64,000 nt of DNA from an uncultured Gammaproteobacteria bacterium (GCA_963976285.1 CAXBJY010000004.1:15107-79106); one strand, 5' to 3'. Counted from the stretch's first letter, positions 2,274 through 55,918 are shown. The notes: a model not told the origin generated them from the letters alone. Numbers and translations: made by a program.

Positions 2274-3269
2274 CTACAGGCCGAAGATCTCCAGCGGTGG
2301 TTCGTCGAGTGCCGCGAACTGCTCGCGCAAATCGAGAATGTGCTGTTCCCAGTAGCGTGGTTCGTTGAACCAGGTGAACGTCCGCGGGAACGCCGGGTCG
2401 TCCCAGCGTTCCGCGAGCCAGGCGTTGTAGTGCAGCAGCCTGAGCGTACGCAGCGCCTCGACCAGGTGCAGTTCGCGCAGATCGAACTCGTGGAATTCGT
2501 TATAGCCCTCGATGATCTCGGATAACTGCGCGCGCTGACGTTCGCGGTCACCGGACAAGAGCATCCACACGTCCTGCACCGCGGGCGCCATGCGGGCATC
2601 ATCGAAGTCGACGAAATGCGGCGTATCGTCGCGCCACAGAATGTTGCCGCTGTGGCAATCGCCGTGTACCCGGATCGGCCGTACCCCGCCGGCTTCGTCG
2701 AAGCGGGTTTCAATTTTCCGCATCAGATCCGCGATCAGCGAGTCGTAGGACGTGCGCAGGTCGACCGGGATGAAATCCGCTGCGACTACCGCGACGGCGT
2801 CATACCCGAAAGTCTGCACCGTAAGCGCCGGTCGGAACTCGAATGGCCGGCTTGCGCCGAGACGGTGGATGCGACCGAGCAGACGTCCAAGAATCAGCAG
2901 GTTGTCGAGATCGTCGATATCCGGGGTGCGGCCGCCACGGCGCGGGTACAGCGACAGGCGAAAATCGTCGACCCGCATCAGGCTGTCGCCGGCCTCGTTG
3001 CGCAACGGCGCAACGACCGGGATCTCGTGCTCGGCGAGTTCGAAGCAGAATTCATGCTCCTCGCCGATTTGCGCATCCGTCCAGCGTCCGGGGCGATAAA
3101 ACTTCGCGATCAGCGGCTCCGCGTCCTCGATACCGACCTGGTACACGCGGTTTTCGTAGCTGTTCAGTGCGAGCAGCCGGCCATCGGTAATGTAGCCCTG
3201 TTGTTCAATCGCCCCGAGGATGAAATCGGGGGTCAGGGTTTCGAAAGGATGGCTCGTCTCATTGTTCAC
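2274..3269 (-). CDS. srkA: stress response serine/threonine kinase SrkA (YihE)
   Basis: GTG start giving MNNETSHPFETLTPDFILGAIEQQGYITDGRLLALNSYENRVYQV, which is collinear with E. coli SrkA (MNNSAFTFQTLHPDTIMDALFEHGIRVDSGLTPLNSYENRVYQF). Kinase motifs HGDCHSGNILW and DFDD are present. Confidence 0.85.
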   Translation of the reverse strand: MNNETSHPFETLTPDFILGAIEQQGYITDGRLLALNSYENRVYQVGIEDAEPLIAKFYRPGRWTDAQIGEEHEFCFELAEHEIPVVAPLRNEAGDSLMRVDDFRLSLYPRRGGRTPDIDDLDNLLILGRLLGRIHRLGASRPFEFRPALTVQTFGYDAVAVVAADFIPVDLRTSYDSLIADLMRKIETRFDEAGGVRPIRVHGDCHSGNILWRDDTPHFVDFDDARMAPAVQDVWMLLSGDRERQRAQLSEIIEGYNEFHEFDLRELHLVEALRTLRLLHYNAWLAERWDDPAFPRTFTWFNEPRYWEQHILDLREQFAALDEPPLEIFGL

Positions 3270-3371
3270 GGCAGGCGGGTTCGCTCGCGGGATTCGGGTC
3301 GGCATTCTACCCCGCGCGAGCCGGTCCACGGGGGATTCAAGCCGGCCGCGGCCGCAGCCGCTAATGTAGTC

Positions 3372-4190
3372 ATGGAAGGGGTGGAAGACAGCAGCGACGA
3401 AACCGCGCCGGAGGACCGTGAGGCCGCGCCGCGAATGGCCGCGCCCGTGAGACGCACGCGCGGGCGCGACGTGTTCGCGAACGACGCCGGGTTTGGCGAC
3501 GACGACAGTCTTGGTGATCACTGGTCGGTACCGTGGTCCGACGTCATGATGATCATGTTCGCTTTGTTCGCGGCACTGCTCGCGGCGAAAATGATGCAGC
3601 CCGATATCGAAATACGCTATCGCGCGGCCCCGGTACCGCAGATCAACGAAGTCGAGATCGAAAAGCCGGTCGATCGTCCCGTGCTCTCGCGTCAGCCGTC
3701 GTTCGAACCCCTGATGCAGCTGAATGTCCTCGAACGCAGTCGCGACGCGGTACGCGAAATGCAGTTGCACAACGTCGACATCGCCCTGCTCGACGATCAG
3801 TCCGTCAAGATCAGCGTCCAGGGTCCGATGTTTTTCGAACTCGGCCAGGCCGATCTGCAGCCCGAGGTCAGGGAGTTCCTCGATCGCCTCGCCCGCGTCA
3901 TCGCCCAGACTCCCTATCAGATTCACGTCGTCGGCCACACCGACGATTATCCGATCAATACGGAACTGTTCCCGAGTAACTGGGAGCTTTCACTCGTGCG
4001 CGCGAGCCGCGTTGCCAGGCACCTGATCAGCGCATCCGCGCTCGATCCCGCGCGCTTCGTCGTGATGGGCCGGAGCCAGTACGCGCCGGCGCATCCGAAC
4101 AAGGACGATGCCATGCGTGCGCTGAATCGTCGGGTCGAGATCATCATTACACGCGAGGTCGCGCCTGCTGCACCCGAGGAGGGGACATGA
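3372..4190 (+). CDS. MotB-like stator protein (N-terminal TM with conserved Asp, C-terminal OmpA/peptidoglycan-binding domain)
   Basis: TM segment WSDVMMIMFALFAALL carries an Asp at the position of the MotB proton-accepting Asp. OmpA-like C-terminus (SNWELSLVRASRV...NRRVEI). The start is uncertain; 3372 is the first ATG, and ATGs at about 3436 and 3546 are alternatives. The stop overlaps the motA-like start. Confidence 0.75.
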   Translation: MEGVEDSSDETAPEDREAAPRMAAPVRRTRGRDVFANDAGFGDDDSLGDHWSVPWSDVMMIMFALFAALLAAKMMQPDIEIRYRAAPVPQINEVEIEKPVDRPVLSRQPSFEPLMQLNVLERSRDAVREMQLHNVDIALLDDQSVKISVQGPMFFELGQADLQPEVREFLDRLARVIAQTPYQIHVVGHTDDYPINTELFPSNWELSLVRASRVARHLISASALDPARFVVMGRSQYAPAHPNKDDAMRALNRRVEIIITREVAPAAPEEGT

Positions 4191-4999
4191 GCACTTATAA
4201 CTGGATGGGCGTTGTGCTGTTCGCCGGAATCTACGGCGCAACGTTCCTGTTTTCCGACAACGCCGCCCTGATGTTCAACGGGATTGGATTGTGCGTCGTG
4301 CTGTCGGGCACGCTCGGAGCGATATTCCTGAGTTATCCCGTCGAGGATCTCCGCGCGGCCGTGCGCGTCGCACGTAATACGTACGCCGGCCGTATGCTCA
4401 CCCCGGAGCGCATCATCGAAATTCTCAGCGAACTCGCCGCGCTGACCCGCTCGAAAGGCGTGCTCGCCCTCGAGAGCTTCAGCGAACAGACCACGATCGG
4501 GTTTCTGAAGCGGGCGCTGAACCTGCTCGTCGACGGTTTCAGGGACGACGAACTCGACGAAATCCTGCATACGGAAATGGCTTACTTCAAACAGCGTCGC
4601 CTGCAGCACGAACGCGTGTTTCGCCACGCCGCGCGCCTCGCCCCGGCGTTCGGCGTCGCCGGCAGCGTGATCGGTCTGATCGCGATGCTCGCCGGTATTG
4701 GCGATCCGGAAGTGATCCTCAGATCCATACCGATCGCGCTGACCTCTACGCTGTACGGCATCGTGCTCAGCAATTTCATTCTCGCCCCGATCGCCGAGAG
4801 CATCCGGGCGAAAACGGAGCGCGAACTGTTGCTGCAGAAGCTTGTAACCGACGGCGTAATCATCATCCGCCGCGAGCCGAACCCGGTTCGCCTGGCAACG
4901 AAACTCGAGTCGTTCCTGACTCCTTCAGCCCGGCATCACGAGAACCGCTCGATCGACGAAATCCGCGACCGCATTCGCAATCTGCATTCCGCGGTCTAG
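4187..4999 (+). CDS. MotA/TolQ/ExbB-family proton channel (MotA/PomA-like)
   Basis: gaggagggg SD. Four predicted TMs with a large cytoplasmic loop between TM2 and TM3. GVAGSVIGLIAMLAGI motif. ATGA overlap with the upstream MotB-like gene. Confidence 0.8.
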   Translation: MSTYNWMGVVLFAGIYGATFLFSDNAALMFNGIGLCVVLSGTLGAIFLSYPVEDLRAAVRVARNTYAGRMLTPERIIEILSELAALTRSKGVLALESFSEQTTIGFLKRALNLLVDGFRDDELDEILHTEMAYFKQRRLQHERVFRHAARLAPAFGVAGSVIGLIAMLAGIGDPEVILRSIPIALTSTLYGIVLSNFILAPIAESIRAKTERELLLQKLVTDGVIIIRREPNPVRLATKLESFLTPSARHHENRSIDEIRDRIRNLHSAV

Positions 5000-5029
5000 C
5001 CGCCAGGCGGCGACCGCCGCGGGTCTTGT

Positions 5030-5060
5030 CCGGCGCCGCGACGGGCGCCGGAAGAATGTC
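5030..5060 (+). terminator. GC-rich hairpin after the motA-like gene (ccggcgcc-gcgacg-ggcgccgg), with a T-run displaced about 9 nt
   Basis: 8-bp perfect stem seen in the sequence. Non-canonical spacing to the tttttt run, so only a weak terminator call. Confidence 0.3.
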
Positions 5061-5118
5061 ATTTTTTGTTAACTTCGTTATAGTATTTCCTCACGAAGGA
5101 CCCTGAGGGAGTGAGGAG

Positions 5119-5871
5119 ATGCTGGGCGCTCTAGTTAACGATAACCGTCGCTCGGCCTATCGTGTACGACCCATAGAAACGGACCGCCTGCGACTCATAC
5201 TCAAGTGGCGGGACACCCGTTATGAACCATTCGAGGTGGGTGATGTAACGCGCCACGGCGCGAGCGTGCGCTTCCCGAAGGGGGTCGGCCCGGGCGTCCG
5301 CAAGGGCGACGAGGTCGCGGTCGAAATCGAGTCGCCGAACCTGCACGGCGGCGCGACGATTGCCGCGCGGGTCGTATTCTCCGGTGACAGTACGACCGAA
5401 CGCATGCTCGGTCTCGCGTTTGACGATGCCGAGGGGCTCGATGCGCGCGCTACCGAGAGCTTTTTCCAGTTGTTCAATCGCCGCGTCGCCTATCGCGACA
5501 GCCAGTCAAACCCGTCGACCCCGCTGCCGGCGACGGTCAAGCCGCTGGCAACGGCCGCGCAGAACAATCTCGTATTCCCGGTAATCGTGCGCAACCTGTC
5601 GGCCACCGGCATCTGCCTCGATGTCGGCGAGGTGGCGGATCGTTTCATGGTGGAACGCGGTGACATTCGCGTGTCGTTGACACTACCCGGCATCCAGCCG
5701 CCGTGCGACATCATTACGACCGTGCGTTACCGCAGCGTGATCGCCGGCAAGATCTATTACGGCTGCCACTTCGACTGGCCGGCCACCCCGCGTGCCCAGG
5801 CGATTCTCGAAGCCCTGACGAATTACACGACGGAGCGGTTCGAACAGGAAATCGCAAGCCTGAGCGGCTAG
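5119..5871 (+). CDS. PilZ domain protein (tandem PilZ-like domains; c-di-GMP receptor)
   Basis: gagtgaggag SD. N-terminal RRSAYRVRP (RxxxR) with DVTRHGASV. Second domain carries NLSATGICLD (D/NxSxxG). Confidence 0.75.
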   Translation: MLGALVNDNRRSAYRVRPIETDRLRLILKWRDTRYEPFEVGDVTRHGASVRFPKGVGPGVRKGDEVAVEIESPNLHGGATIAARVVFSGDSTTERMLGLAFDDAEGLDARATESFFQLFNRRVAYRDSQSNPSTPLPATVKPLATAAQNNLVFPVIVRNLSATGICLDVGEVADRFMVERGDIRVSLTLPGIQPPCDIITTVRYRSVIAGKIYYGCHFDWPATPRAQAILEALTNYTTERFEQEIASLSG

Positions 5872-8328: not shown

Positions 8329-10107
8329 ATGTCCAAAATCGCCGTCAAGCTCCCCCCCAGCCTGTACTCCGCGCCCGCCAGCGACACCACGACGCCCGCG
8401 GACGCGAACACGATTACCGCGGTTCTGGGCCAGCTCATCGACAGCATGCAGGAGCCGGCTTACCTGCTGGATCGCAGTCACCGCTGGGTTTACGTGAATC
8501 AGGCCTACTGCGAGTACATGGGCTGCACCCGCGCGCGACTCCTCGGTCTGACCGTACGCGATATTCTTGCCCCGGCCGAAGCGAACAGCGTGTGGGAGAA
8601 CGACGATGTTGCGTTCAAGACCGGCGAGACCGTTGTCAACGAATCCGTCACCCCCGCCGGGGTCTCCGCGCCGCGTGTATTGCAGACACGCAAGGCCATC
8701 GTTCACGCGCCCGCGGGGCAACTCTACCTGTTCGGGAGCGTGCGCGACCTGACCGGCACGGATGATGCCCGGCAACTCCTGCGCGGACCGACGGCCAGAG
8801 CCGGCGATCGCGCGTGTACGATCCGCAACCTCGGCTACGGCCAGATCCGTTTCGTATTCTCCGATCCGCTGACCCAGTTGCCAAACCGCCGCGCCGCGAT
8901 GAACCTGATCGACACGATCTCGGCGAGGGCAGATTCGGACACGGCGGTTCTGTTGCTCAACATCGACCATTTCTCGCTCGTCAACGATCGCTTCGGCTAC
9001 GGTCTCGGCGATGCCGCGATGATCGAAGTCGCGCAGCGCTTGCGCGGCGCAATGGGTACGCGGCATACGCTCGGTCGGCTCGACAACGATGAGTTCGTCA
9101 TCATCGCCGAGCAATGCGATCCGATGCACGCGGATCTGCTGGCCGAACAGTTGCTCGGTCATATCACTCAGCCGATGTCGCTTGGCGATTATGACTACCG
9201 TCTGTCGGCTTCGATTGGTATCGCGCTCATGCCCGAACACGGACGCACCGCATCCGAACTCGTACGCAATGCCGGGCTGGCGATGCGCTTGTGCAAACAG
9301 CGCCGACGCGGACAGTCCGAACGCTACTCGCAGCGCGCGAGTGCCGCCGCAGAACGTCGCGCGAGCATCGAATTGCGCCTCGCGGCGGCGGTAGAGCAGG
9401 GCCGAATCCAGGTGCACTATCAGCCGTTCATCGACGGAACGAGCGGCGAGCTGCGCGGCTTCGAAGCGCTTGCCCGCTGGACCGATCCCGAACTCGGGGT
9501 AATCGAACCCTCGGAGTTCATTCCGATCGCCGAAAGCACCGGCATTATCCGGCGGCTCGGGCAGGACGTACTCGAACAGGCCTGTACGATGGCGGCAACG
9601 CTCGCCGACGATTCGCTGACGGTTTCGGTCAACGTATCGAGTGTGCAGTTGATCGACGAAACGTTTCCGATCGCCGTTGCCGAAACACTCCAGCGGTGCG
9701 AGATGCCGGGCGAGCGTCTGTTGCTCGAAATCACGGAGACCGTCGCCATGGCGGCGGACGATACGGTGGCGCAAACACTGAAGGAACTGTCGGACATCGG
9801 GGTCCGTCTGCTGATCGATGATTTCGGTACCGGGTTCTCGAATCTCGCGCGTCTCAAGACCTTGCCCATCTGCGGTATCAAGATTGATCGTGATTTCGTC
9901 GCCGACCTGCCGGATTCGCCGCAGGACTCCGCGATCTTTCGCGCCGCGCACGCGATCGCGACGGCGATGGGACTGATGATCATCGTCGAGGGGATCGAAA
10001 ACGCGGCCCAGGACGCATTCGTGCGCGAGTTCCCCATCGACTATCTTCAGGGTTATCACTTCGGCTTGCCGCTGCCGGTCAAAAAACTGGGTCGCTATAC
10101 GCGCTGA
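8329..10107 (+). CDS. PAS-GGDEF(degenerate)-EAL c-di-GMP phosphodiesterase
   Basis: N-terminal PAS-like region. The GGDEF signature is replaced by RLDNDEF. The EAL domain is intact (EALARW, DDFGTG, EITE, EGIE). Confidence 0.85.
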   Translation: MSKIAVKLPPSLYSAPASDTTTPADANTITAVLGQLIDSMQEPAYLLDRSHRWVYVNQAYCEYMGCTRARLLGLTVRDILAPAEANSVWENDDVAFKTGETVVNESVTPAGVSAPRVLQTRKAIVHAPAGQLYLFGSVRDLTGTDDARQLLRGPTARAGDRACTIRNLGYGQIRFVFSDPLTQLPNRRAAMNLIDTISARADSDTAVLLLNIDHFSLVNDRFGYGLGDAAMIEVAQRLRGAMGTRHTLGRLDNDEFVIIAEQCDPMHADLLAEQLLGHITQPMSLGDYDYRLSASIGIALMPEHGRTASELVRNAGLAMRLCKQRRRGQSERYSQRASAAAERRASIELRLAAAVEQGRIQVHYQPFIDGTSGELRGFEALARWTDPELGVIEPSEFIPIAESTGIIRRLGQDVLEQACTMAATLADDSLTVSVNVSSVQLIDETFPIAVAETLQRCEMPGERLLLEITETVAMAADDTVAQTLKELSDIGVRLLIDDFGTGFSNLARLKTLPICGIKIDRDFVADLPDSPQDSAIFRAAHAIATAMGLMIIVEGIENAAQDAFVREFPIDYLQGYHFGLPLPVKKLGRYTR

Positions 10108-15153: not shown

Positions 15154-16413
15154 ATGAGTGACCTGATCCCGGTTCGCCGCGTTGATAAAGCGTTAGTTGC
15201 CGTCGCCAGGGATATCCGGGTGCTCACTCAGCTGGAGTGGGATCCGCGCCTGCACGATATTTTTCTTGATGCCTGGCGACGCGGTGAGCCGCAATTGCCC
15301 GTCGTTAGCTACCGCAACGTCGACTACACGGGGCCGTTATTCGCGCTCGATGCACTCGTCACCGAAGCGGACCGTCTCGACCACCCCCTGGGACGTTTCC
15401 TCAGGCAAACCGCCGAGTCGTATCTGACCGTCGTGCGCATGCTGGACAACATCAACACGCCCGCAATGTCGGCGCTGTCGAAATCAATTTACGGATCGCC
15501 GGATGACCCGATCACGGGAGGCCAGGGCACCTCCAGTCTCGATGCGGCGAAATACTTTCTCAGCGTTGCCGGCGAGTTCTATCACGCACATCAACCCCTG
15601 GAATCCGATTTCTGTTTGTCGGCGCAATCGGTCGCGGCTGAAATTAAAACCGGCCTCGCGGAAGTTTTTCCAGACGGCGTGATCCAGGTTCAGATCGACA
15701 AAACGCTTGCCGCGAAAGCGGCGGCCGGTGCCACCCGCATTCGATTGCGTGACGCTACCTGCTTTTCCGAATACGACCACGAGCAGCTACTGCAACACGA
15801 GGCATTCGTCCACTCACTGACGGCGTTGAACGGCCGACGTCAGCCGAATCTGTCGACGCTGGGTATCGGTGCGCCACGTACCACGGCGGCGCAGGAAGGC
15901 CTGGCAACGTTCGCGGAACTTGTAACCGGCGCGATAGATATTGCGCGCCTCGAGCGTATCGCCATGCGGATCGTCGCGATCGATATGGCGCTCGGCGGGG
16001 CCGATTTTATCGAGATATTCAAATATTTCATGAACGCGGGGCAACCGGAATCGGAAAGCTACAATTCCACGGTGCGCGTATTTCGCGGTGCACCGCTCGG
16101 CGGCGGCCACGCATTCACGAAAGACTCCGTGTATTTGCGCGGGCTGCTCGAGGTGCATACGTTTTTTCGCTGGGCACTAAAGGAACAGAAACTTACGCTT
16201 GCCCAACATTTTTTTGCCGGCCGCATGACACTCGCCGATGTAATCCGTTACGAAGCATTCTTTCTTGACGGCACGCTCGCCCCGGCAGCCTACTTGCCGC
16301 CGTGGATGACGCGCACGACGGGTCTTGCCGGCTATCTCGCGTTCGCGGTGTTCGCGAACAACATCGACCTCTCGAGTCTGTACGCCGACCACGAGTTTCA
16401 CGCGCTGGGTTAA
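15154..16413 (+). CDS. flavohemoglobin expression-modulating QEGLA-motif protein (DUF1704, carboxypeptidase-like)
   Basis: Contains the diagnostic AAQEGLATFAE motif. The 419-aa length is typical of TIGR02421. Confidence 0.75.
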   Translation: MSDLIPVRRVDKALVAVARDIRVLTQLEWDPRLHDIFLDAWRRGEPQLPVVSYRNVDYTGPLFALDALVTEADRLDHPLGRFLRQTAESYLTVVRMLDNINTPAMSALSKSIYGSPDDPITGGQGTSSLDAAKYFLSVAGEFYHAHQPLESDFCLSAQSVAAEIKTGLAEVFPDGVIQVQIDKTLAAKAAAGATRIRLRDATCFSEYDHEQLLQHEAFVHSLTALNGRRQPNLSTLGIGAPRTTAAQEGLATFAELVTGAIDIARLERIAMRIVAIDMALGGADFIEIFKYFMNAGQPESESYNSTVRVFRGAPLGGGHAFTKDSVYLRGLLEVHTFFRWALKEQKLTLAQHFFAGRMTLADVIRYEAFFLDGTLAPAAYLPPWMTRTTGLAGYLAFAVFANNIDLSSLYADHEFHALG

Positions 16414-33564: not shown

Positions 33565-35745
33565 TCACTGCACCTCGAACGTCACCGTCGCGGTACGGGT
33601 CGGCGGGGTGCCGTCGTTGTGCTCGATTTCCGCAAACGTGGTGAACCTGCCGCGCGCAAGCGGCCACGCATATGTACCGCCCGAGGTCGTGTCCGCGGCT
33701 TCACCATTGACAAACCAGTGCACCCGGCGCGCCGTATCGGCACCCGCGAGTTCGAACTGGAAAACCTCGTGCTCATCCGGGATCCGCGGATCCATCGCGA
33801 GACGCAGTCCGTTGATCGGTTTGCGCAGTCGCAATGGCGCATTCGTCGTCGGCAATGCCCGCGGTGCAAGCCCGCGAACGAACCATTCGTCGCGCGTAGC
33901 GCACGGCGCGTCGGGCGGCAGGCCCGTTTCGCGACACACCGTGCGCTGCACGAGATTCGGGCTGCGGTACAGGGCGCCGCGTTCGCGGTGGCGATTCAGC
34001 TCGCGCAAGGTCGCGCGCAGCACGAGAGCGGGTCCGGTCGAACCGGTGACGTCGTGCATCGCCGTGTAGTCGAGATTGCCCATCCACACCCCGACCGTGT
34101 AGCGGTCGTCGTAACCGATCGCCCAGGCGTCGCGATAGTCACTCGAGGTGCCGGTCTTTACCGCCGTCGGTGCCGCGAAATTCAGGATCGAATAAGGCCC
34201 GAACTCGAGTTCGCGTGCATGTGGATCGGACAGGATATCGGCGATCAGGCTCGCGACATCCGCGGAGAAGATGCGCGCGCCCGGCGCCGTATCGCCGGCG
34301 AGCAGGCGCAGCGGTGCGAACTCGCCCATGCGCGCGAGCACGGTATAGGCCTGCACGAGTTCGAACAGCGTTACTTCGCCGTTACCGAGGGCAATGCCGT
34401 CGCCATACACGTTCGGATGTTCCGTCAGACTGTTGATACCGAGTTCGCGCAGACGCTCGATGAACGTTGCCGCGCCGACCAATTGCGCCACGCGTACGGC
34501 GGGTGTGTTCAGCGAATTGCCGAGCGCTTCGCGCACGGACACGGGACCGTAATAGCGGTGCGAGTAATTCGCCACCGCGTGGAGACCAAGACCGACGTTT
34601 TGTTCGAGCGGCGCGTCGTCGATGACGCTTGCGGCACTCAGGCCCTGCGCCAGGGCCTCGGTATACAGCAGCGGTTTCAGCGCCGAGCCCGGCTGGCGCC
34701 GGACCGTGACGGCATCGATTGCGGTAAACGGTTTGCCAGCCTGTCCGGCGTGACCGACGACCCAGGCGAGCACTTCACCGCGGGTGTGGTCGACCGCGAG
34801 CACGGCGGCGTTGTGGACGTGGCGGCCGGCGAGATCGGCGAGGCGACGGTCGAGGATTTGCTGCACGCTGCGCTGCACGGTCAGATCGAGCGTCGTGGAC
34901 GTGATCCCGTCGCTCCGCGCGCCGGGTTCGCGCTCGTTTAAATAACGCAGGAAATGCGCGACGTTCACGGGCCTTGCGACGCGCCGCGGCGACAGGTTCT
35001 GGGCGGCGATCTCCGCGCCGTCGAGCGCGAGTTCGCCGCGCCGGTGCAGGGTGTGGGCGACCGCGCGAATGCCGCGTTCGAGTGCCGGCGTGCGTGAGCG
35101 GGGATCGAACCAGCGCGGCGCGCGAACGATGACGGCGAGCGCGAGCAGTTCCTTTTCGTTCAGGGTCGCGAGATCCCGATCGAAGTAATACCGCGCGGCC
35201 TGCACGACGCCGCGCCGGCGTGCGGCGTACGGCACCTGGTTCAGATAGAACTCGAGGATCGCGGGCTTGCCATGCGCGCGTTCGAGCGCCGCGGCCTCGA
35301 AGCCTTCGAGCCAGCGCGACCAGGGCGTGCGCGCGCGCGGGTGCAGCATGCGCACGACCTGTTCGCTGATCGTACTCGCACCGCGCACTACCCGACCGGC
35401 GCGCAGGTTCGCGAGCGCCGCCGCCGCGCGCGCGGTCCAGTCGACCCCGTCGTGTGTCGCGAAGCGCCGATCTTCGGCGGCGATGAACGCAGCGCTCAGC
35501 AGTTGCGGCGCCCGGTGCAGTGCGATCCGGTCGTGGATGTTCCACCGGTTCTCGTACGTCGCGTTGAGACGTTCACCGTGACGATCGGCGTAGACGATCC
35601 GCCGCGTGTGCGCGGACCCGGCGTCGGGCAATACCGTCGGGATCGGTCTCAACGCGAGCCCGGTGGCGATGGTCAGCGCGCCGGCGGCGACGGCAAAACC
35701 ACCGACGATTATGCGCAAGGCGAGGGCACGATGGCGCTTGTGCAT
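33565..35745 (-). CDS. pbpC: penicillin-binding protein 1C (bifunctional transglycosylase/transpeptidase)
   Basis: GT51 motifs (EDRRFATHDGVD, RGASTISEQ) plus a transpeptidase module. The C-terminal PbpC domain lies immediately downstream of the A2M gene. Confidence 0.9.
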   Translation of the reverse strand: MHKRHRALALRIIVGGFAVAAGALTIATGLALRPIPTVLPDAGSAHTRRIVYADRHGERLNATYENRWNIHDRIALHRAPQLLSAAFIAAEDRRFATHDGVDWTARAAAALANLRAGRVVRGASTISEQVVRMLHPRARTPWSRWLEGFEAAALERAHGKPAILEFYLNQVPYAARRRGVVQAARYYFDRDLATLNEKELLALAVIVRAPRWFDPRSRTPALERGIRAVAHTLHRRGELALDGAEIAAQNLSPRRVARPVNVAHFLRYLNEREPGARSDGITSTTLDLTVQRSVQQILDRRLADLAGRHVHNAAVLAVDHTRGEVLAWVVGHAGQAGKPFTAIDAVTVRRQPGSALKPLLYTEALAQGLSAASVIDDAPLEQNVGLGLHAVANYSHRYYGPVSVREALGNSLNTPAVRVAQLVGAATFIERLRELGINSLTEHPNVYGDGIALGNGEVTLFELVQAYTVLARMGEFAPLRLLAGDTAPGARIFSADVASLIADILSDPHARELEFGPYSILNFAAPTAVKTGTSSDYRDAWAIGYDDRYTVGVWMGNLDYTAMHDVTGSTGPALVLRATLRELNRHRERGALYRSPNLVQRTVCRETGLPPDAPCATRDEWFVRGLAPRALPTTNAPLRLRKPINGLRLAMDPRIPDEHEVFQFELAGADTARRVHWFVNGEAADTTSGGTYAWPLARGRFTTFAEIEHNDGTPPTRTATVTFEVQ

Positions 35746-35748
35746 CGC

Positions 35749-38700
35749 TCAGTCCTCCACCACGAGCGTCGCCGGCAGGCCGCGCCCGTACACATCGGGG
35801 TCGTACATCTCTTCGGCACGGACCGCCGGTGCGGCAAACTCGCCCGCGGCGATCGCCTGCGCGGTGTACGCGAGGTGATAGTTGCCGGGTGGCAGGTAGT
35901 CGGCGTAGAAGCGCGCGGCGTCGAAGCGCAGTTCCCGGTGATAGAAACTCGCGAAATACGCGCCGTAAGTCGTCCACGTATCGTGCGTGAAATACCACGA
36001 GCCGGCGCCGAACCGCTCGCCGGCTTTCGCCGCGTCCACCAACGAACTCGTCGCGAGGTCGGTGTTGACGGGTTCAAGGCCGCCGGGAACGGGATCTTCG
36101 ACGACGACGAAATGGCGCGCGCCGGCGACGGATACGAACAAATCGACGCGCACGATTTCGCCCCGGGCGATGCGGACCGGCTTGTCCAGGCGTTGCCACT
36201 GGCCGTTACGTTCGACGGTGTATTCACGCCGGATCTCGATCCCGGCGTTTGTCCGTGCGGCGGCGTCGGCTTTGCGGTCGTAAGCGAGCCGCGCCGAGTA
36301 ATACAGGCGGCCCGGGCCGTCTTTCGTCAGCGACATCGTTGCGCGCCGTCCCGCATCGGTGGCGTTCAGCGATCGGCCGAGCGTGACGGCGGGATCGCGC
36401 AAGTCCCCGAATGCCGCGCGGCCGAGCGTTTCGCGGTCGAGCGTGACGGCGATTCTCATATCCGGGGCCGTGTTCTCGAAGTGCCGCGCATAATCGACGA
36501 GCGCGTTCATACAGAACACGTTTTCCTGGGTATTTTCGAAGTGCGTACGTTGACCACGGCTTTGCGTGATCGCGCGCACGAGCTTGAACGGGATCTGATC
36601 GAGTCCCGGCAGTGCCGGTACGCTCGTGTTTGCGTCGACGAGCCCGGACAGGATCGCGCAGTTCGCGCGCAACGGGCTCGCGAGCAGGTGTTCGAATCCG
36701 TCGTCGAGAGTTTCACTGAACGTGAACTTGCCGCCGGATTGATCCGCGTGCGCAAGAATCTTCGCCACGGTTCCCGCGCGCAGGTCCTGCGGCACGTCCG
36801 GGGTCGCAAGTACGGCGCGCAGGTAATGCGCCTTGCCGAACAGATCCATCGCATCGACGTGCCGCGCGTAACGCGCGATGTCCTGCGCGGTCAGCGCGCC
36901 GTCGCCGGCGAGTGCCGCGAGCGCGACCGCGCGCACGCTCGACGCCATCCCGGCAGTGTAGAAGCCCGGGAACTCGTCGCGCCGCAACAGGCGCAACAGA
37001 TATTCCCGCAGCCGTGCAGCCACCGTTGCCGGTACGTCGTGACCATCGCGGCGCAACCAGTTGAATGCGATCGCTGTGTACGCCGACAGGTACGGGCTGA
37101 CGTGGGCGTTCGATGCCTGCCAGTACGCCATGCCGCCGTTCGGCGCCTGGAAATCAGCCGCCGCGGCGAGCGCGCGCGTGATATCGCCGTCCGGATCCGT
37201 CCACGCGACCGTGTCGGCGAGGTATGCGTGCAATTCACCGTAGGCCGACGCCGCGACGGCTTTCGTGAGTTGCTGTTCCCAGCACCGGTGCGGGTAATCC
37301 TTCAGGTAGTTGAAGGCGCCGTCGAGATTGCCGATCACGCTCGGTGACAACACCGCCTCGATGCGGCCGACATCCGTGTGGATATCGTCCGGTATCGCGA
37401 ACTTTTCCGTCACGCTCGCGGCAACGGTCGTGCCGTAACTCGCGGCCGTTGCCGGCGCCCGGATCCGGGTCACCGGCACGACGTGCTCGATCGCGTCCGT
37501 ATCGAGGGCATCGCCGGCGCGCGCAACGAAGCGTAACTCCCCGTCACGTACGGTCGTCAGTGGCACGCTGAATGGCACGCGATCATACGGCGCGACGGTG
37601 AGCACGCGGTTCGTGACCGCTGCCGCGCTGTCGGCGAGCGGCCCTTCGACATCGACGGAGACCGTGATCTCGCGCGGCGATGCGGTCCGGTTCATGACCG
37701 TAAAGCCGGCGCGCGCGCGATCCCCGGCGCGCAACTGATTCGGCATGACCGGCCGGATCTCGGTTGGCCGGTTTACCTTGAACGTCGCCTCGCCGAGACC
37801 CATGCGCGCATCCGGGGTAACGCCGAGCGCGAGGATGCGCCAGCCGGTGAGATTGTCCGGCACCTCGAACTCGATCTCCGCGGTGCCGTCCGGTCCGGCC
37901 ATGAGCGACGGATTCCAGTAACTGACGAACTTGAACAGATTGCGCAGGGCGGCGCCGTCCGCGCCGCCACCGCCGCCGGGGTTCGCGCCTTTGCTCACGA
38001 AATTCTGCCGTCCGACGAGGCGCGCGAGCAGGCTGTAGTTGTTCACATCGAGGCCGTCGAGCCGGTTGAAGCCGGCGTAGGGATCGTAGTAAGTCGCGCC
38101 ATTGCGGTTCAGCGCGAGCACGGCCTCGTCGACCACGGCGACCGCGAATTCCACCGGCGGATTTTCCCCCGGCGCGCGCGGCACGCGAACTCTTGCACGG
38201 ACATGGTCGCGCGGTTTCACGGTTTTCGCGTTCGTCGTCACTTCGACCGCGAGCCGTGCACCCGGATCGTTCACGTCGACGGCGAGGTAGCCGATGCGGT
38301 AACCCGGCTTGCCGAGATCGACCCGGCCGGGTTCCGGCGGCGCGGCCACCCGGGGTGAAACGACGACAACGGAAACGTAGAAACCCGGCAGATAATCCGC
38401 TTTGATCGGCACCTCGATCACCGGCGTGCTCGTCGCCAGTTCGGTCGTCCAGCTGTCGATGACACCATAGCGTTCGATCGTGACGAGTGCCCGCGCACCG
38501 GGGTAGGGGTTCTGCAGCAGGAAGCGCGCCGTGTCGCCGATCGCATGCGACGATTTCTCGGCGATGATCGGCAGGCTTGCATCGTTCGACTGATCCCATG
38601 CGACGTAGCCGGACCCTGTCACCCAGCCGTAGGCGGTCGTGTGATGCTCGCGGCCGGCACTGTCGAGCGTACTCGCGACGAACTGGTAATACCCGGCCTG

Positions 38701-41568
38701 GTCCGGCACGAATTCACACGTTGCGCCGGCGGCGGTCGTCTTCAGCTGGCACGCGGACTCGGCGACCCAGTTCATCACGTTTCGGATCAGGTACGCATTG
38801 CCCGGACCTTTCACGCGCGCGGTCTTCACTTCACGCCGGTTGATGATGATCGCAACCGGGGCGTTCTCGCGGATTTCGCCATGGCGATCGACGACGAGGG
38901 TGTCGAGGCGGGCGGGTTCTCCCGCGGCGTACAGCCATTGCGTCTGCTTCAGCCCGACGAACACATCGCGCCCCGCGTACGTCGCTTGCGTGGTCGCGGC
39001 AACGCGCTTGCCGCGATCGTCGCGCACCGCCGCTTCCACTTGCACGGTGCCGTAGTAGATATCCGACTGCGGCAGTTCGATCCGGGTGTCGAACCGGCCG
39101 TGTTCGTCGAGCTTCGCGTGGGTATCGGCGAGCGCGCGGGTGCCGGCGGCTTCGCTATCGCTGTTACTGCCGAACACGAAGCCTTCCGCGCGCGGATTCT
39201 CCGGGGTAAACGCACGCGCATGCAGGCGCGCATTGATCCGCACGTCGGCGTGGGTAAACGGTCCGCCGGCATACAGCGTGGCGCGCGAGTCGATCCGCAT
39301 CGCATCACCGGCAGCGAAATCCGTGCCATTGAGTTCCGCGCTCACCTTGAACGGCGACGGCGTGAAATCGCTGACGAGTATGGACAAGGCCTGCCACGAA
39401 AAGCGGGTCGCGGTGTCCGCCGCCGGGTTTGCCGGACGTAACTGGAACCGATACCAGCCGACGGCGCCGGATGCGGGTATGGTGAAGCGTCCGTCGAGCG
39501 CGCCGAAGCGGTTCAGGGTGATGCCATCGCGTTCGAACACGGTCTTGCCCTGCGGATCGGTAACGCTCAAGACATAGTCGCCGGGGGCCGGCTGAACCCA
39601 GTGCCGGTTACTCTGCTCACGCACGTAGATCTTGTAGTCGACGGCGTCGCCGAGCTTGTACACACCCTGGGCCGTCGTGCCCCACGCGTGCGTGTGGCCG
39701 CCACGCTTGCGGATATGCGCATATACCCCACCACCGCGCACCGCGTAGTCGTAGTCGATCGGCAGCAGCGCGATGTCGCCGTCACGTTCGACCTGCGCGA
39801 ACAACTGCACGTCATCGCGGTTGTAGATCAGCGCGAGTTCGGGGTCGAGCGTTGCCAGGCCCGGCAGTTGTGCGATGCCATCGGTGTCCGTCTGCGCGCC
39901 GACCCCGAGCGGCTGCAGGGACGCGAGCCGCTCGACCTTGCCCGTCCACAACGTGACATTCGCGTCGTTCACGGGTTCGCCGGTGGCAAACGTCGTGACC
40001 CATGCGAGTGAATTGAAGTGACCCAGCTTGTAGTGCACCTGGTACGGCGTGACCTGCGCGAGGATCCGCGGATCGTGATGCCAGCCCGGCGGCACGGGCC
40101 GCGGTCGCAGACGCGCGAACACGGCGCCACTCGATTGCGCGAGCAGACGCCGTATTTCGAGCGGGCGCGCATACGCGATGTCCGTCGCCGGACTCACGTC
40201 GAGCCGTTCGCGCAAGCCGCTACCCGTCATCGCCGTACCGAGCCGGTCGTATTCGACATCGATGTGTTCGAGATTCGTCACATACAGCGGTACGTCGCTG
40301 TCGACGCCCTGTTCGAGCACCGCATTCGTGAGACCGACGGTGAGCTTTGGTTCGCGATGACTCGTGTGGAATGAAAATGCGACGGGCGCCGGCAGCTTGC
40401 GCCCGAACTCGTCCGAGAACGCCGTCGGATCCAGCGTGACCGCATAGCGCCGATCGGCGAGCAGGTAAACCGGCAACCGGCGCGCGTAAACGCGATCGCG
40501 CCCGTGCGGCGCGCCGAGCTCGCTCCAGTCATGCAGGTTTTGCCACGGGTCGAAATCCTTGCGCTCGCCGTCGAGCGCCGGCGTGAACGTGGCGTGATCC
40601 CGGATCACGGAATTCAGCACCGGCGCCGAGAACAGCAGGGCGACGGATTTCAGTGGCGCGCAGCGCCGCGCGGACGCATCCGCGGACTGCAGCTCCGCGA
40701 GCAGCAGATCGGCAACCCGTGCACTGCCTTTCGGCGTGCAGCGCAGGCCGAGAAAACGGAATTCGGGATACGTGTCGAAACCGACGATGGTGCGCTGTTC
40801 GATCCCGCGTTCAGGTCCCGCGGCGCCCGTCAGTCCGGGGCTGATGTCGAGTGCGATCGTCGCATCCAGCGGCAGTTCGCTGATCGGTTCGACGACCCAG
40901 GCACGGCGCGGGGTCACGTCGTCGTCGCCGGCCGGGTCCCGCGCTGCGGGCGGGTCCGGTGCGTAGGCCCAGCGCGGCGCACGTCTTGGTACGTCGTCGG
41001 GATACGCGACGAGCGCAACCTTGCGGCCCTTCGTTGTGAACGCCAGCGCGCGTTCCACCGAAGCGCGCGTTACCGCCTGGTTGAACGCGACCCGAATCAG
41101 CGGCGTGCCCGGCGACAGCCAGTTGACGAAGTGCGCGTAGGTGGCTTTCGGTCGCGCCGTCGTGAACGTATGTGTCACGGCGGTGGCGAGACGGGCGCCG
41201 TCCGGTGTTTCGAATCCGGGCGCTACGGTCACGTTGTAGCGGGTTGCAAGCCGGAGCCGGTGCGCGTCGCCGAGTTCGCAGGCGAGCGCGCTCGTGTTCA
41301 GCCACCGCCACTCGCAGCCGGGTTGCGGTGAAATCGTGATCGGGATTTCTTCCGCCGTTCGATCCATGCGCCCGATCGGTACGACGGCGCGGTCGAACTG
41401 AAACACGATTTGCCGCCCGCCCGGCACCTCGTCGCCGGCCGGCGTGATCCGGCTGAGCCGCAACGCCTGTTCGGCAGCACTCGCGCCCGGGCACGCGAGC
41501 AGGCCGAGTACGAGCGCGCAGAGCACGCGCGGAAAAATGACTGAGCGACGGTCGAATCGGTGTTTCAT
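35749..41568 (-). CDS. bacterial alpha-2-macroglobulin family lipoprotein (YfhM-like)
   Basis: 1939 aa. Lipobox LLAC in the signal peptide. Thioester-region motif CWEQ. Conserved pairing with pbpC. Confidence 0.9.
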   Translation of the reverse strand: MKHRFDRRSVIFPRVLCALVLGLLACPGASAAEQALRLSRITPAGDEVPGGRQIVFQFDRAVVPIGRMDRTAEEIPITISPQPGCEWRWLNTSALACELGDAHRLRLATRYNVTVAPGFETPDGARLATAVTHTFTTARPKATYAHFVNWLSPGTPLIRVAFNQAVTRASVERALAFTTKGRKVALVAYPDDVPRRAPRWAYAPDPPAARDPAGDDDVTPRRAWVVEPISELPLDATIALDISPGLTGAAGPERGIEQRTIVGFDTYPEFRFLGLRCTPKGSARVADLLLAELQSADASARRCAPLKSVALLFSAPVLNSVIRDHATFTPALDGERKDFDPWQNLHDWSELGAPHGRDRVYARRLPVYLLADRRYAVTLDPTAFSDEFGRKLPAPVAFSFHTSHREPKLTVGLTNAVLEQGVDSDVPLYVTNLEHIDVEYDRLGTAMTGSGLRERLDVSPATDIAYARPLEIRRLLAQSSGAVFARLRPRPVPPGWHHDPRILAQVTPYQVHYKLGHFNSLAWVTTFATGEPVNDANVTLWTGKVERLASLQPLGVGAQTDTDGIAQLPGLATLDPELALIYNRDDVQLFAQVERDGDIALLPIDYDYAVRGGGVYAHIRKRGGHTHAWGTTAQGVYKLGDAVDYKIYVREQSNRHWVQPAPGDYVLSVTDPQGKTVFERDGITLNRFGALDGRFTIPASGAVGWYRFQLRPANPAADTATRFSWQALSILVSDFTPSPFKVSAELNGTDFAAGDAMRIDSRATLYAGGPFTHADVRINARLHARAFTPENPRAEGFVFGSNSDSEAAGTRALADTHAKLDEHGRFDTRIELPQSDIYYGTVQVEAAVRDDRGKRVAATTQATYAGRDVFVGLKQTQWLYAAGEPARLDTLVVDRHGEIRENAPVAIIINRREVKTARVKGPGNAYLIRNVMNWVAESACQLKTTAAGATCEFVPDQAGYYQFVASTLDSAGREHHTTAYGWVTGSGYVAWDQSNDASLPIIAEKSSHAIGDTARFLLQNPYPGARALVTIERYGVIDSWTTELATSTPVIEVPIKADYLPGFYVSVVVVSPRVAAPPEPGRVDLGKPGYRIGYLAVDVNDPGARLAVEVTTNAKTVKPRDHVRARVRVPRAPGENPPVEFAVAVVDEAVLALNRNGATYYDPYAGFNRLDGLDVNNYSLLARLVGRQNFVSKGANPGGGGGADGAALRNLFKFVSYWNPSLMAGPDGTAEIEFEVPDNLTGWRILALGVTPDARMGLGEATFKVNRPTEIRPVMPNQLRAGDRARAGFTVMNRTASPREITVSVDVEGPLADSAAAVTNRVLTVAPYDRVPFSVPLTTVRDGELRFVARAGDALDTDAIEHVVPVTRIRAPATAASYGTTVAASVTEKFAIPDDIHTDVGRIEAVLSPSVIGNLDGAFNYLKDYPHRCWEQQLTKAVAASAYGELHAYLADTVAWTDPDGDITRALAAAADFQAPNGGMAYWQASNAHVSPYLSAYTAIAFNWLRRDGHDVPATVAARLREYLLRLLRRDEFPGFYTAGMASSVRAVALAALAGDGALTAQDIARYARHVDAMDLFGKAHYLRAVLATPDVPQDLRAGTVAKILAHADQSGGKFTFSETLDDGFEHLLASPLRANCAILSGLVDANTSVPALPGLDQIPFKLVRAITQSRGQRTHFENTQENVFCMNALVDYARHFENTAPDMRIAVTLDRETLGRAAFGDLRDPAVTLGRSLNATDAGRRATMSLTKDGPGRLYYSARLAYDRKADAAARTNAGIEIRREYTVERNGQWQRLDKPVRIARGEIVRVDLFVSVAGARHFVVVEDPVPGGLEPVNTDLATSSLVDAAKAGERFGAGSWYFTHDTWTTYGAYFASFYHRELRFDAARFYADYLPPGNYHLAYTAQAIAAGEFAAPAVRAEEMYDPDVYGRGLPATLVVED

Positions 41569-41710
41569 GGTGCAAGAGTATCAGTGACGATAGCGGCAAT
41601 GCCGGGGCGCAAACAGGGCGAATTATGGCCGAGCATGGGGTGTCGCGGGAGGAATTTGTCAGCAACCCCGGGGAGGCGAATAATGCAGCGATTAAAGCGG
41701 AGGATCGGGG

Positions 41711-44886: not shown

Positions 44887-44959
44887 GGTGTCCTCTCAAG
44901 TTCTCCGCCGGCACGGTCGATGACAGGGATAGCCCACCAATTACTGTCAGGAACTGCCC

Positions 44960-45865
44960 GTGAACAGCGTTGCCGCGACCAGCCTCGAACCAGAAGAACT
45001 GAAACCCAGTAACGAACCGCTCGCACGCAGCATCGTCGGCGACATGTCGGCGCTCGTGTCACCCCCCGATGTGTATCTGAAGATCAGCGACATGATCGCC
45101 GACAATACGGCCTCGGCCGCGCAGTTCAGCGATGTGATCATGCGTGACCCGAGCCTCGCCGCGCGCATCCTGAAACTCGTGAACAGTTCCTACTACGGCT
45201 TGCAGACGAAAGTCGATACGGTCACGCGCGCCGTTGCCGTGATCGGCATGCACGAGTTGTCGAGCCTGGTCTATTCGATGTGCGCCGTGCAGTCGTTTTC
45301 ACGCATCTCGTCCGGGGTGACGAACATGAACACGTTCTGGCGTCACGGTGTGTACTGCGGACTCCTCGCGAAAGCGATCGCCACGAAAGTGAATTGCCTG
45401 AACACCGAACGCCTGTTCGTCGCGGGACTGCTGCACGACGTCGGCACACTCACGATCAACTCGCGATTCCCCGAAATCGCCGAAAATTCGATCTTCAGGG
45501 CAGAAGGTGACGAGGCGAAACTCGTGGTCACGGAGCACGAGGCACTCGGGTTCGATCATGCCTACCTCGGCGGGCTCATGCTCGAGAGCTGGCACCTGCC
45601 GGCGGCGACGTGTGACGCGATCCGTTATCACCACCAACCGAAGGCGGCGAAAGTGACGACGCTCGAAGCGAGCATCCTGAACGCGGCCGATACGCTCGCG
45701 AACTACTCCGGCACCGGCAGTTTCGCCGAAAAGATCGCGGACCGCGACGACATCCCCGAGGACATCTGCGCGGAACTCGAACTCCCCGCCGATTTCAATC
45801 ACGACGAGTTGCTCGAGCAGGTCGATCAGCAGTTCGTTGAAACGATCTACCTGCTCGTCGCCTGA
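44960..45865 (+). CDS. HDOD domain signalling protein
   Basis: HD-related motifs (GLLHDVGTL, ...HHQPK). GTG start. Confidence 0.75.
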   Translation: MNSVAATSLEPEELKPSNEPLARSIVGDMSALVSPPDVYLKISDMIADNTASAAQFSDVIMRDPSLAARILKLVNSSYYGLQTKVDTVTRAVAVIGMHELSSLVYSMCAVQSFSRISSGVTNMNTFWRHGVYCGLLAKAIATKVNCLNTERLFVAGLLHDVGTLTINSRFPEIAENSIFRAEGDEAKLVVTEHEALGFDHAYLGGLMLESWHLPAATCDAIRYHHQPKAAKVTTLEASILNAADTLANYSGTGSFAEKIADRDDIPEDICAELELPADFNHDELLEQVDQQFVETIYLLVA

Positions 45866-55901: not shown

Positions 55902-55918
55902 AATGCGAATGCGAATGC
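55902..55918. repeat. hexamer tandem repeat (aatgcg)x3 inside a 498-bp non-coding leader
   Basis: aatgcgaatgcgaatgc seen directly. Flanked by locally AT-rich sequence. Confidence 0.5.

Follow-up and report, generated by a model that had tools for sequence, protein, structure and literature searches.

A MotB-before-MotA gene order marks a predicted separate branch of PomA/MotA-type stators; in one lineage the pair lies next to a tandem PilZ gene

Flagellar stators are treated as uniform: their genes form an A-then-B operon and their B subunit is gated by a plug. A 64-kb stretch of gammaproteobacterial DNA (the window; all positions are counted from its first letter) holds a pair that departs from this scheme, and we asked what such a pair might drive and whether the PilZ protein encoded beside it belongs to it. 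A motB-like gene (3372-4190, plus strand; 272 aa; Pfam OmpA, 3e-14) precedes a motA-like gene (4187-4999, plus strand; 270 aa; Pfam MotA_ExbB, PF01618, 2.3e-17), and the start of the second overlaps the stop of the first at ATGA. The coordinates and the Pfam matches of both genes thus uphold the order and the overlap given in an initial annotation of this DNA. A protein identical to the 272-aa MotB-like product is also among the gene calls of Tara and JGI. Downstream lies a gene for a tandem PilZ protein (5119-5871, plus strand; 250 aa; Pfam PilZ, 9.3e-14, in two stretches).

The rest of the window supplies context. A Pfam survey of its approximately 55 ORFs turned up no family linked to flagella, pili or chemotaxis anywhere in the 64 kb, as the initial annotation had stated. 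Divergent from the pair is an APH-family gene of the phosphotransferase/kinase type (PF01636; 2274-3305, minus strand; candidate starts at 3305 or 3269); it stands 5' of the pair in loci L003-L008 and L011, and in the close lineage the two are syntenic. Two signalling genes that had been listed downstream were also recovered. The first (8329-10107, plus strand; Pfam PAS_4, GGDEF and EAL) encodes a protein whose translation reads DNDEF in place of GGDEF and has an intact EAL motif, which makes it a candidate c-di-GMP phosphodiesterase. The second, approximately 40 kb downstream, is an HDOD-domain gene (44933-45865, plus strand; Pfam HDOD, 2.5e-60).

A 2025 survey of 205 genomes found B directly downstream of A in most genomes (PMC12505986), and against this background the reversed order is real and unusual, as had been proposed. 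In 78 of 80 related loci B came first, the remaining two being cut by contig ends. The ATGA overlap recurred in 26 of the 80, and the gap between B and A was at most 20 nt in most, so that close translational coupling is a second mark of the branch. The complete chromosome OZ244144.1 holds the same locus with a 96% identical A subunit, and contig ctg258022l of ERZ21829562 holds L085. More distant relatives within the branch (P0306, P0310, P0320 and P0426) were all B-then-A. The two relatives tested from outside it, P0313 and P0315, were A-then-B; the B subunit of P0313 has a Pfam MotB_plug match, and the N-terminus of the P0315 B subunit reads as plug-type. An attempt to define the family by score was abandoned: identities slide smoothly from 61% to 28% with no break, and the order is B-then-A in a relative at 36% (140 bits) but A-then-B in one at 33% (150 bits). 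Score therefore cannot delimit the branch, and a distance tree separates it instead. In the neighbour-joining tree, all B-then-A members fell in one 31-tip group apart from 111 other stator representatives, the split being that of the midpoint root, with a stem of 0.225 on one side and of 0.073 on the other, in a distance tree that carries no bootstrap values. We conclude that, as judged from sequence, the reversed order is a family trait of a separate PomA/MotA-type stator branch and not a local oddity.

The B-then-A branch is widespread and uncharacterised, and no curated family model captures it. The reversed pair is present in Chromatiaceae, Burkholderiales MAGs, Desulfovibrionales, Syntrophaceae and others, as well as in one Myxococcota MAG. 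Cultured carriers include Halochromatium, Lamprobacter and Maridesulfovibrio, which we take to be flagellated genera. Luminiphilus is also found among the carriers. Our literature search on B-then-A stators and on non-flagellar PomA-type stators returned nothing relevant; a paper on Lysobacter (PMC9927559) deals with lost flagellar genes and not with a B-then-A stator family.

The A subunit aligned with Vibrio PomA (8bri) at 1.5e-32 and in register, residues 26-249 against 26-247. Its cytoplasmic loop is PomA-sized, the alignment gap there amounting to just two residues. R88 and E96 are the equivalents of PomA R88 and E96, and P153 and P201 those of PomA P151 and P199. S160, S187 and T188 take the places of PomA T158, T185 and T186, so that hydroxyl residues are retained at the Na+ site in which these PomA residues have a role (PMC6677748). 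The rotor-contact pair R88/E96 of PomA corresponds to R90/E98 in E. coli. Among 81 family A subunits, position 88 was R or K in 79 and position 96 was E in 72; S160, P153 and P201 were kept in all. The A subunit has two traits of a flagellar A subunit (the 'FIT/TGI4' class of PMC12505986), namely a MotA_ExbB domain with two prolines and an expanded loop with the charged rotor-contact pair. Nevertheless, it passed none of the curated NCBIfam flagellar-stator cut-offs, and the same held for the more distant B-then-A relatives. Its scores were 149.3 against a cut-off of 394 for MotP, 148.7 against 341 for PomA, 144 against 340 for MotA and, at the closest approach, 145.4 against 237 for PRK09109. 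MotP and MotD were among its best NCBIfam matches, and the Tol/Exb NCBIfam models did not match it.

The B subunit consists of an acidic, disordered region (residues 1-50), a transmembrane helix (55-75), a linker (76-111) and an OmpA-type domain that begins with helix 112-130. It matched C. sporogenes MotB (6ysf) over its full length at 2e-28, and residues 108-261 matched residues 148-302 of PomB as well as PomB-C crystal structures (3wpw, periplasmic region). The channel aspartate is D57 in WSDVMMIMFALF, inside the transmembrane helix. It aligns with MotB of 6ysf, is shared by at least 91% of the 76 B subunits aligned for the family and was invariant in a further alignment (A4). This transmembrane Asp and an OmpA-type domain (PF00691, 3e-14) with a preceding periplasmic helix (112-130 in the AlphaFold2 model) are traits of flagellar B subunits. 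The initial annotation had seen a plug together with the transmembrane Asp; the Asp stands, whereas the plug is not confirmed. The MotB_plug match reached 17.4 bits, short of the 24-bit cut-off, and covered profile positions 15-42, that is, the transmembrane part only. The AlphaFold2 model had no plug helix between the transmembrane helix and the OmpA-like domain, residues 76-111 being non-helical, with pLDDT below 50 across 82-108, where a short helix may form only in the assembled complex. The linker contains six prolines and no glycine, and neither in the family alignments nor elsewhere in the branch is the post-transmembrane segment conserved. A plug is listed as a defining trait of flagellar stators, whereas Tol/Exb-type B subunits are typically without a defined plug (PMC12505986).

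From the observed homology, residue conservation, gene order and distribution, we lean towards the view that the pair is an alternative or additional flagellar-type stator, possibly Na+-coupled to judge by its residues. The two overlapping genes would encode one ion-driven stator unit of the PomAB/MotAB type in which, by homology, a ring of MotA-like subunits would surround a MotB-like dimer, a stoichiometry carried over from known stators. Ions would pass Asp57 of B and the polar site S160/S187/T188 of A, whose composition may mean Na+. The OmpA-like domain of B would anchor the unit to peptidoglycan, and the cytoplasmic loop of A, with R88 and E96, would push on a rotor. The presumed rotor partner is most likely FliG encoded elsewhere in the genome, on which the stator would dock. 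The tandem PilZ may brake the stator if the two proteins make contact. Four results count against a flagellar stator: the lack of a recurring flagellar neighbour, the failed NCBIfam cut-offs, the plug helix that was not found and the lack of flagellar genes in the window.

The first of these emerged from the surroundings of the pair in the 80 loci. Their nearest neighbours comprised 139 non-redundant proteins with 212 Pfam families, none of which occurred in more than three proteins, and no flagellar family recurred among them. Clustering of all ORFs in the 80 loci yielded no recurring third partner either. The pair is an isolated bicistron without a recurring neighbour. Translations of the genes downstream of it in relatives read as housekeeping proteins (a putative sugar kinase, poly(A) polymerase/folK/panB, GyrA and ClpB). 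Signalling proteins are scattered nearby: a CheW+CZB protein lies directly downstream of the pair in one locus, a point in favour of a flagellar stator, and the pair is adjoined by GGDEF-EAL in L030, HDOD in L012 and FHA/EAL in L040. The canonical A-then-B pair of P0313 likewise lies away from flagellar genes, and the isolation of the pair therefore proves little.

The PilZ protein carries two sets of c-di-GMP motifs, R10/R11..R15 with D42xT44xxG47 in its N-terminal part and R121/R122..R126 with N159xS161xxG164 in its C-terminal part, the latter invariant or nearly so. Both sets were conserved in 16 orthologues, in accord with the RxxxR/DxTxxG and NxSxxG motifs noted initially. The AlphaFold2 model (pLDDT 72) has two beta-barrel domains followed by a C-terminal helix (226-248). 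Foldseek placed MrkH first (1.3e-7), then MotI (5vx6, 3.3e-7), PlzD (2rde, 1.7e-6) and YcgR (5y6f, 3.6e-6), with PP4397/FlgZ also among the matches; E-values ranged from 1e-7 to 1e-5 and TM-scores from 0.26 to 0.41. The architecture had been called YcgR/MotI-like. This is right for the two-barrel fold and wrong for the YcgR_N+PilZ layout: Pfam gave no YcgR_N match, and the N-terminal barrel matches the PilZ model with its own conserved RRxxxR and DxTxxG, so the protein is a true tandem PilZ. Its motifs and modelled fold identify it as a predicted c-di-GMP receptor of the two-barrel YcgR/MotI kind with two predicted sites. The family profile found no match among PDB sequences at E up to 1. Among 5.8 billion proteins it had 32 clusters, almost exclusively from one gammaproteobacterial lineage, and the sole distant relative found, P0152 (27%), is not near any stator. 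With two complete c-di-GMP motif sites, the tandem PilZ forms a small separate family, and none of its relatives by sequence has a solved structure.

Between motA and pilZ, a GC-rich hairpin can be read at 5031-5052 (plus strand), and the RNA fold of 4990-5125 had an energy of -62.4 kcal/mol (z = -3.34). The T-rich tract begins only about 10 nt past the stem, which makes the hairpin a possible but imperfect terminator; a simple terminator scan did not call it. Promoter scanning found a sigma-70-like match, ATGTCA-17-TATAGT, at 5056-5084 (plus strand). One such site upstream of pilZ compares with 0.6 expected by chance, so this match is weak on its own. A GGAG-rich ribosome-binding site precedes the pilZ ATG. 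A GC hairpin followed by pilZ under its own promoter had been predicted; the hairpin and a promoter-like site are both there, and the downstream tandem pilZ is probably a separate transcription unit.

How closely is pilZ tied to the pair? The PilZ-bearing marine gammaproteobacterial lineage is syntenic over more than 20 kb, and the syntenic stretch holds unrelated genes (M48 peptidase, cupin, APH, luciferase-like, hydrolase, GGDEF-EAL and acyl-CoA dehydrogenase). tblastn over the related loci found no PilZ relative beside the pair outside the close lineage of the window. Within the lineage, adjacency holds down to 49-50% PilZ identity. In some relatives, up to three unrelated genes separate motA from pilZ. 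One is a Ysc84-like gene encoded on the other strand; L085/86 have a 189-aa ORF and an IS transposase there as well. In three relatives with an intact pair, pilZ seems to be truncated or to carry a frameshift. It is truncated by the IS in L085/86, and the MAG loci L004 and L011 gave a partial pilZ match (in L011 across a frameshift), with assembly errors possible in both. The conservation of a motB-motA-pilZ neighbourhood, which had been put forward for checking, thus extends to the B-A order (78 of 80 loci), whereas pilZ is confined to the close lineage. The proposal of a standalone stator with a dedicated PilZ is not supported by the same results, since PilZ occurs almost only in one lineage, is separable from the pair and appears truncated in some relatives. 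The tie of PilZ to the pair is weak, a matter of lineage-specific synteny only.

It is quite possible, then, that the pair is a working stator with which the PilZ protein has nothing to do, the latter being an effector for another target (a transcription role like that of MrkH, or enzyme control) that is adjacent through synteny only. The unrelated genes in the shared stretch, the promoter-like site past the hairpin, the genes inserted between motA and pilZ and the location of P0152 all fit this explanation, as does the best fold match, MrkH being a transcription activator. On the other hand, the near-equal fold matches YcgR, MotI and FlgZ are stator-binding brakes, and the adjacency persists to the limit of PilZ identity given above.

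A bolder explanation holds that the stator derives from the flagellum and now serves non-flagellar work, such as surface motility, secretion or an envelope process, with the PilZ gating it by c-di-GMP in this lineage. We consider this unlikely. It would account for the isolated bicistron with no recurring flagellar family beside it, for a separate branch that scores below all curated flagellar-stator cut-offs and for the failure to find a plug helix, which suggests a different gating. The retention of pilZ beside the pair across the lineage with both motif sets conserved, the c-di-GMP-related or other signalling genes that adjoin the pair in L030, L012 and L040, and the pair in a Myxococcota MAG point the same way. 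However, the PomA-type loop is conserved in its entirety, R88/E96 included, as would be expected of a subunit that contacts FliG, and no conserved alternative partner gene lies beside the pair. The rest of the family lacks the PilZ; in relatives it is set apart from motA by other genes or appears truncated, and the canonical P0313 pair likewise lies away from flagellar genes. The PomA-like register and the rotor-contact charges of A, together with the presumably flagellated cultured carriers, count against a non-flagellar role. In its most specific form, a plug-less-looking B-then-A stator would have been recruited by a non-flagellar rotor or an envelope machine whose genes lie elsewhere and be switched by a two-site c-di-GMP tandem PilZ in the marine lineage; this seems to us decidedly improbable.

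That the pair does not generate torque at all, and is a Tol/Exb/Agl-type energiser, a Zorya-type defence component or a decaying relic, is hardly credible: B has weak ZorB matches through the shared OmpA/MotB fold, and no plug helix was found in it, a defined plug being typically absent from Tol/Exb-type B subunits, but PADLOC gave no ZorA match and the 270-aa A subunit has no long tail, on which grounds we rejected Zorya and other defence systems, A has the expanded PomA-type loop and B the OmpA-type domain, and two intact ORFs with strong conservation across >700 to 1100 database proteins show that the pair is not a relic.

Whichever role applies, a coherent and widely spread branch departs from the rule on gene order, and perhaps also from that on the plug, yet retains the residues for rotor contact and the ion path. 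If the pair is an alternative flagellar stator, it offers a natural test of how ion leakage is avoided without a recognisable plug and of whether gene order affects 5:2 assembly. Its occurrence in genomes that lack flagella would make it the first case of a flagellar-type stator put to another use, and if a PilZ-switched role outside the flagellum proved true, it would be a non-flagellar ion motor gated by c-di-GMP.

MotCD of Pseudomonas, MotPS of Bacillus and MotAB of Shewanella are two-gene stators that can lie outside flagellar clusters and supplement a main stator. The window pair resembles them as a stand-alone two-gene unit; they are A-then-B and above the family cut-offs, whereas the window pair is neither. 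With PomA/PomB, the four-helix ('TGI4') Na+ stator of the polar flagellum of Vibrio (PMC12505986), it shares the A subunit in register, the transmembrane Asp and the PomB-type OmpA-like region. It differs from that stator in its reversed order, in having no plug helix that we could find, in an identity of approximately 30-35%, in the 149 bits of its A subunit against the 341-bit PomA cut-off and in its placement in a separate branch. YcgR, MotI/DgrA, FlgZ/PP4397, PlzD and MotL of Shewanella are PilZ proteins that serve the flagellar motor as brakes or clutches (PMC8203827, PMC6093933). The window PilZ has the two-barrel fold of YcgR (E. coli), MotI (B. subtilis), FlgZ (Pseudomonas) and PlzD (Vibrio), with a c-di-GMP motif located on the linker that leads into the C-terminal barrel. 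Unlike in these YcgR-type brakes, its N-terminal barrel is a PilZ domain of the canonical type that has RxxxR/DxTxxG motifs of its own. Finally, AglRQS, TolQR, ExbBD and ZorAB belong to the same superfamily and are ion-driven outside flagella, a precedent for a non-flagellar role. Generic ion transporters are without the expanded cytoplasmic loop and without an OmpA-type B domain (PMC12505986); AglRQS, TolQR and ExbBD have small cytoplasmic domains, ZorA has a long tail, and Tol/Exb-type B subunits are non-OmpA. The window pair combines a flagellar-type loop with an OmpA-type anchor.

Genes for a MotB-like protein (B subunit; 3372-4190, +; 272 aa; Pfam OmpA, 3e-14), a MotA-like protein (A subunit; 4187-4999, +; 270 aa; MotA_ExbB, 2.3e-17) and a PilZ protein (5119-5871, +; 250 aa; two PilZ stretches, 9.3e-14) were found by ORF and Pfam analysis as initially annotated. 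All three are co-directional, and the ATG of the MotA-like gene overlaps the MotB-like stop codon as ATGA. Both the Tara and the JGI gene catalogue list the 272-aa B product with the same start. The public annotation of the Tara scaffold (L001) omits it because an antisense APH ORF was extended to 554 aa across the gene (window 2274-3938, −; L001 8088-9752). This call is a high-GC antisense-ORF artefact; the true APH gene has ~330-345 codons and starts near 3305 or 3269. The 119-nt spacer ahead of pilZ contains the previously noted GC hairpin (5031-5052; folding of the region beat 200 of 200 shuffles, z = −3.3), followed by a single promoter-like match (5056-5084), and also a GGAG-rich ribosome-binding site. 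Given these three elements, pilZ plausibly forms its own transcription unit, in line with the promoter proposed for it.

The scaffold that includes the window is 110 kb long (GC ~64%) and derives from an uncultured gammaproteobacterium in a Tara Oceans metagenome. A Pfam survey of ~55 ORFs across the 64 kb agreed with the initial annotation that flagellar, pilus and chemotaxis families are absent, and the PAS/degenerate-GGDEF/EAL (8329-10107) and HDOD (44933-45865) proteins matched their earlier description. Elsewhere in the window, a 419-aa protein (15154-16413, +) matched Pfam MATCAP (PF08014, 1e-103), whose name comes from a microtubule-associated tyrosine carboxypeptidase of eukaryotes. 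On the minus strand (33565-41580), a PBP1C-type transglycosylase/transpeptidase gene comes after a gene for a 1943-aa bacterial alpha-2-macroglobulin, a pairing known in other bacteria. The run at 53870-63352 (RDD, SpoIIM-like, sulfatase-domain membrane protein, DUF58, MoxR-type AAA ATPase, DUF4350, DUF4129) looks like a MoxR/DUF58-type membrane-associated module.

From a scan of species-representative genomes we took the best 80 of 169 loci with relatives of the query. In 78 of these 80, the gene immediately upstream of the MotA-like one was MotB-like; the other two were cut by contig ends. The junction was an ATGA overlap in 26 loci and a gap of ≤ 20 nt in most others. Carriers were gammaproteobacterial (Halochromatium, Lamprobacter, Thiohalophilus, Luminiphilus and many unnamed MAGs) as well as Burkholderiales MAGs, Maridesulfovibrio, Humidesulfovibrio, Desulfocurvus, Syntrophaceae, Desulfobacterales and one Myxococcota MAG. 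The inversion is real and more general than the window alone showed: reversed gene order marks a whole stator branch and is not a local oddity. We found no description of such a branch in the literature; in a 2025 survey of stators from 205 genomes, B was directly downstream of A in most (PMC12505986).

Among 1.84 billion cluster representatives there were 3572 relatives, and the group cannot be delimited by score alone since identities fall smoothly from 61% to 28%. We built a midpoint-rooted neighbour-joining tree from 142 full-length proteins, without bootstrap values. Its root set 111 other stators apart from a 31-tip group that holds the window protein together with all known B-then-A members; the two stems measured 0.225 and 0.073. 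Context look-ups showed B-then-A order for the in-group relatives P0306, P0310, P0320 (36% identity) and P0426 (35% identity, 115 bits). The out-group relatives P0313 (150 bits) and P0315 (144 bits) were A-then-B despite their higher scores; the B partner of P0313 has a Pfam MotB_plug match, and that of P0315 has an N-terminus that reads as plug-type.

Clustering of all locus ORFs left only A and B in common, and the pair is an isolated bicistron. Its nearest neighbours (139 non-redundant proteins, best 80 of 169 loci) fell into 212 Pfam families, each in ≤ 3 proteins, with no recurring flagellar family. Housekeeping neighbours read from translations included a putative sugar kinase, poly(A) polymerase/folK/panB, GyrA and ClpB; Pfam identified Maf and efflux pumps. 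Signalling neighbours (CheW+CZB, HDOD+GAF, PAS-GGDEF-EAL, hybrid histidine kinase, FHA) were scattered. Some lie directly downstream of the pair (L010 6897-7721; L012 2693-4144; L030 2446-6690; L040 7439-8149; L048 6897-7283), encoding CheW+CZB, HDOD+GAF, 1414-aa PAS/GAF-GGDEF-EAL and FHA proteins, one of the latter with an EAL fragment; they come from scattered lineages with no single family recurring, and are anecdotal. In one more-distant B-then-A locus (L093 6037-7689 and L094 3433-5085), a 550-aa MptE-like protein (PF01973) directly follows the pair. The Maf flagellin-glycosylation factors belong to this family and are of similar size, and such a protein would be a flagellar link; the L093/L094 protein matched no NCBIfam model.

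The initial annotation proposed a non-flagellar, c-di-GMP-gated motor. That the pair stands alone counts only weakly against a flagellar role: P0313, with canonical A-then-B order, has an equally isolated pair, and pomAB and Pseudomonas motAB are likewise located away from flagellar clusters. The PilZ protein could sense c-di-GMP: both its N-terminal (RRxxxR, DxTxxG) and C-terminal (RRxxxR, NxSxxG) halves carry the complete motifs described earlier, and orthologues keep them. Its link to the stator is weak. Conservation of the neighbourhood held for motB-motA; pilZ was confined to one lineage and was separated or truncated in some members. Among 5.8 billion proteins the family amounts to just 32 clusters, with a single exception at ≥ 49% identity, and the large clusters share contigs with the closest MotA-like proteins. 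Since > 20 kb is syntenic in this lineage, unrelated enzymes included, finding pilZ beside motA says little on its own. The one distant relative (27%; L083 7609-8738) is not near a stator; it adjoins a second PilZ gene (114 aa), both within a DUF1329/DUF1302/MMPL gene group. The next relatives of the pair (L009 and L010; A identity 68-73%) have no PilZ there. Several relatives have an opposite-strand Ysc84-like gene between motA and pilZ. In L085/L086 (8489-10657, 13196-14986), from a relative on a 2.96-Mb contig, a further ORF and an rve-family IS transposase, the latter just upstream of pilZ, also intervene, the PilZ product lacks its first ~32 residues and the GGDEF-EAL gene is split in two ORFs; with motB-motA intact, this suggests local decay of c-di-GMP genes. 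In L004 and L011 the pair is intact and pilZ matched only in part (in L011 across a frameshift), possibly through assembly error as these are MAGs. We regard a non-flagellar, c-di-GMP-gated motor as unlikely; the lineage-specific tandem PilZ neighbour could either act on the stator or be unrelated to it.

Along its whole length the B subunit matched MotB of Clostridium sporogenes (2e-28), and its residues 108-261 matched the PomB periplasmic region. The annotated transmembrane Asp is Asp57, in the highly conserved motif HWSVPWSDLMMVMFVLFA. The annotated plug was not confirmed, because the MotB_plug match was sub-threshold and spanned only the transmembrane part of the profile, the linker was non-helical and the post-TM segment was not conserved across the family. 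In the AlphaFold2 model (24-sequence alignment, pLDDT 68), an acidic, disordered N-terminus precedes the TM helix (55-75), a 36-residue Pro-rich, Gly-free linker of mostly low confidence and an OmpA-like domain opening with helix 112-130. A plug helix might form only in the assembled complex.

The evidence best supports reading the pair as an alternative stator of flagellar type, possibly coupled to Na+, from an undescribed reversed-order branch with no plug found. By sequence, the A subunit is a PomA/MotA-type, i.e. flagellar-type, protein. It scored below the cut-off of every curated NCBIfam stator model (MotP, 149 versus 394; PomA, 149 versus 341; PRK09109, 145 versus 237; MotA, 144 versus 340).

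For the PilZ protein, AlphaFold2 predicted two beta-barrels plus a helix at the C-terminus (pLDDT 72); no PDB relative was found by profile search, and the top Foldseek matches were the two-barrel proteins MrkH, MotI/DgrA, PlzD, YcgR and PP4397 (E 1e-7 to 1e-5; TM-scores 0.26-0.41). The predicted overall shape is thus YcgR/MotI-like, as annotated, but where YcgR has the motif-less YcgR_N domain, the N-terminal barrel here is a complete PilZ domain. The top PDB-sequence match of the A subunit was Vibrio alginolyticus PomA (1.5e-32), aligned in register over residues 26-249 (PomA 26-247) with one 2-residue gap. Unlike PomA, the family has a strongly conserved L(E)SFLTPxxR motif in the C-terminal tail (alignments A1 and motA_all; L240, F243, L244 and R249 each in ≥ 99% of 81 members), which could be a family-specific docking site. 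Shared with PomA are the FliG-contacting charges R88 and E96 (R90 and E98 in E. coli; PMC12505986), with R or K at 88 in 79/81 members and E at 96 in 72/81. Both prolines are also shared (P153 and P201; PomA P151 and P199), as are hydroxyls at S160, S187 and T188, aligned with PomA T158, T185 and T186, which are required for Na+ binding and flux (PMC6677748); P153, S160 and P201 are invariant in the 81 members. These hydroxyl residues point to Na+ coupling as in PomA without establishing it.
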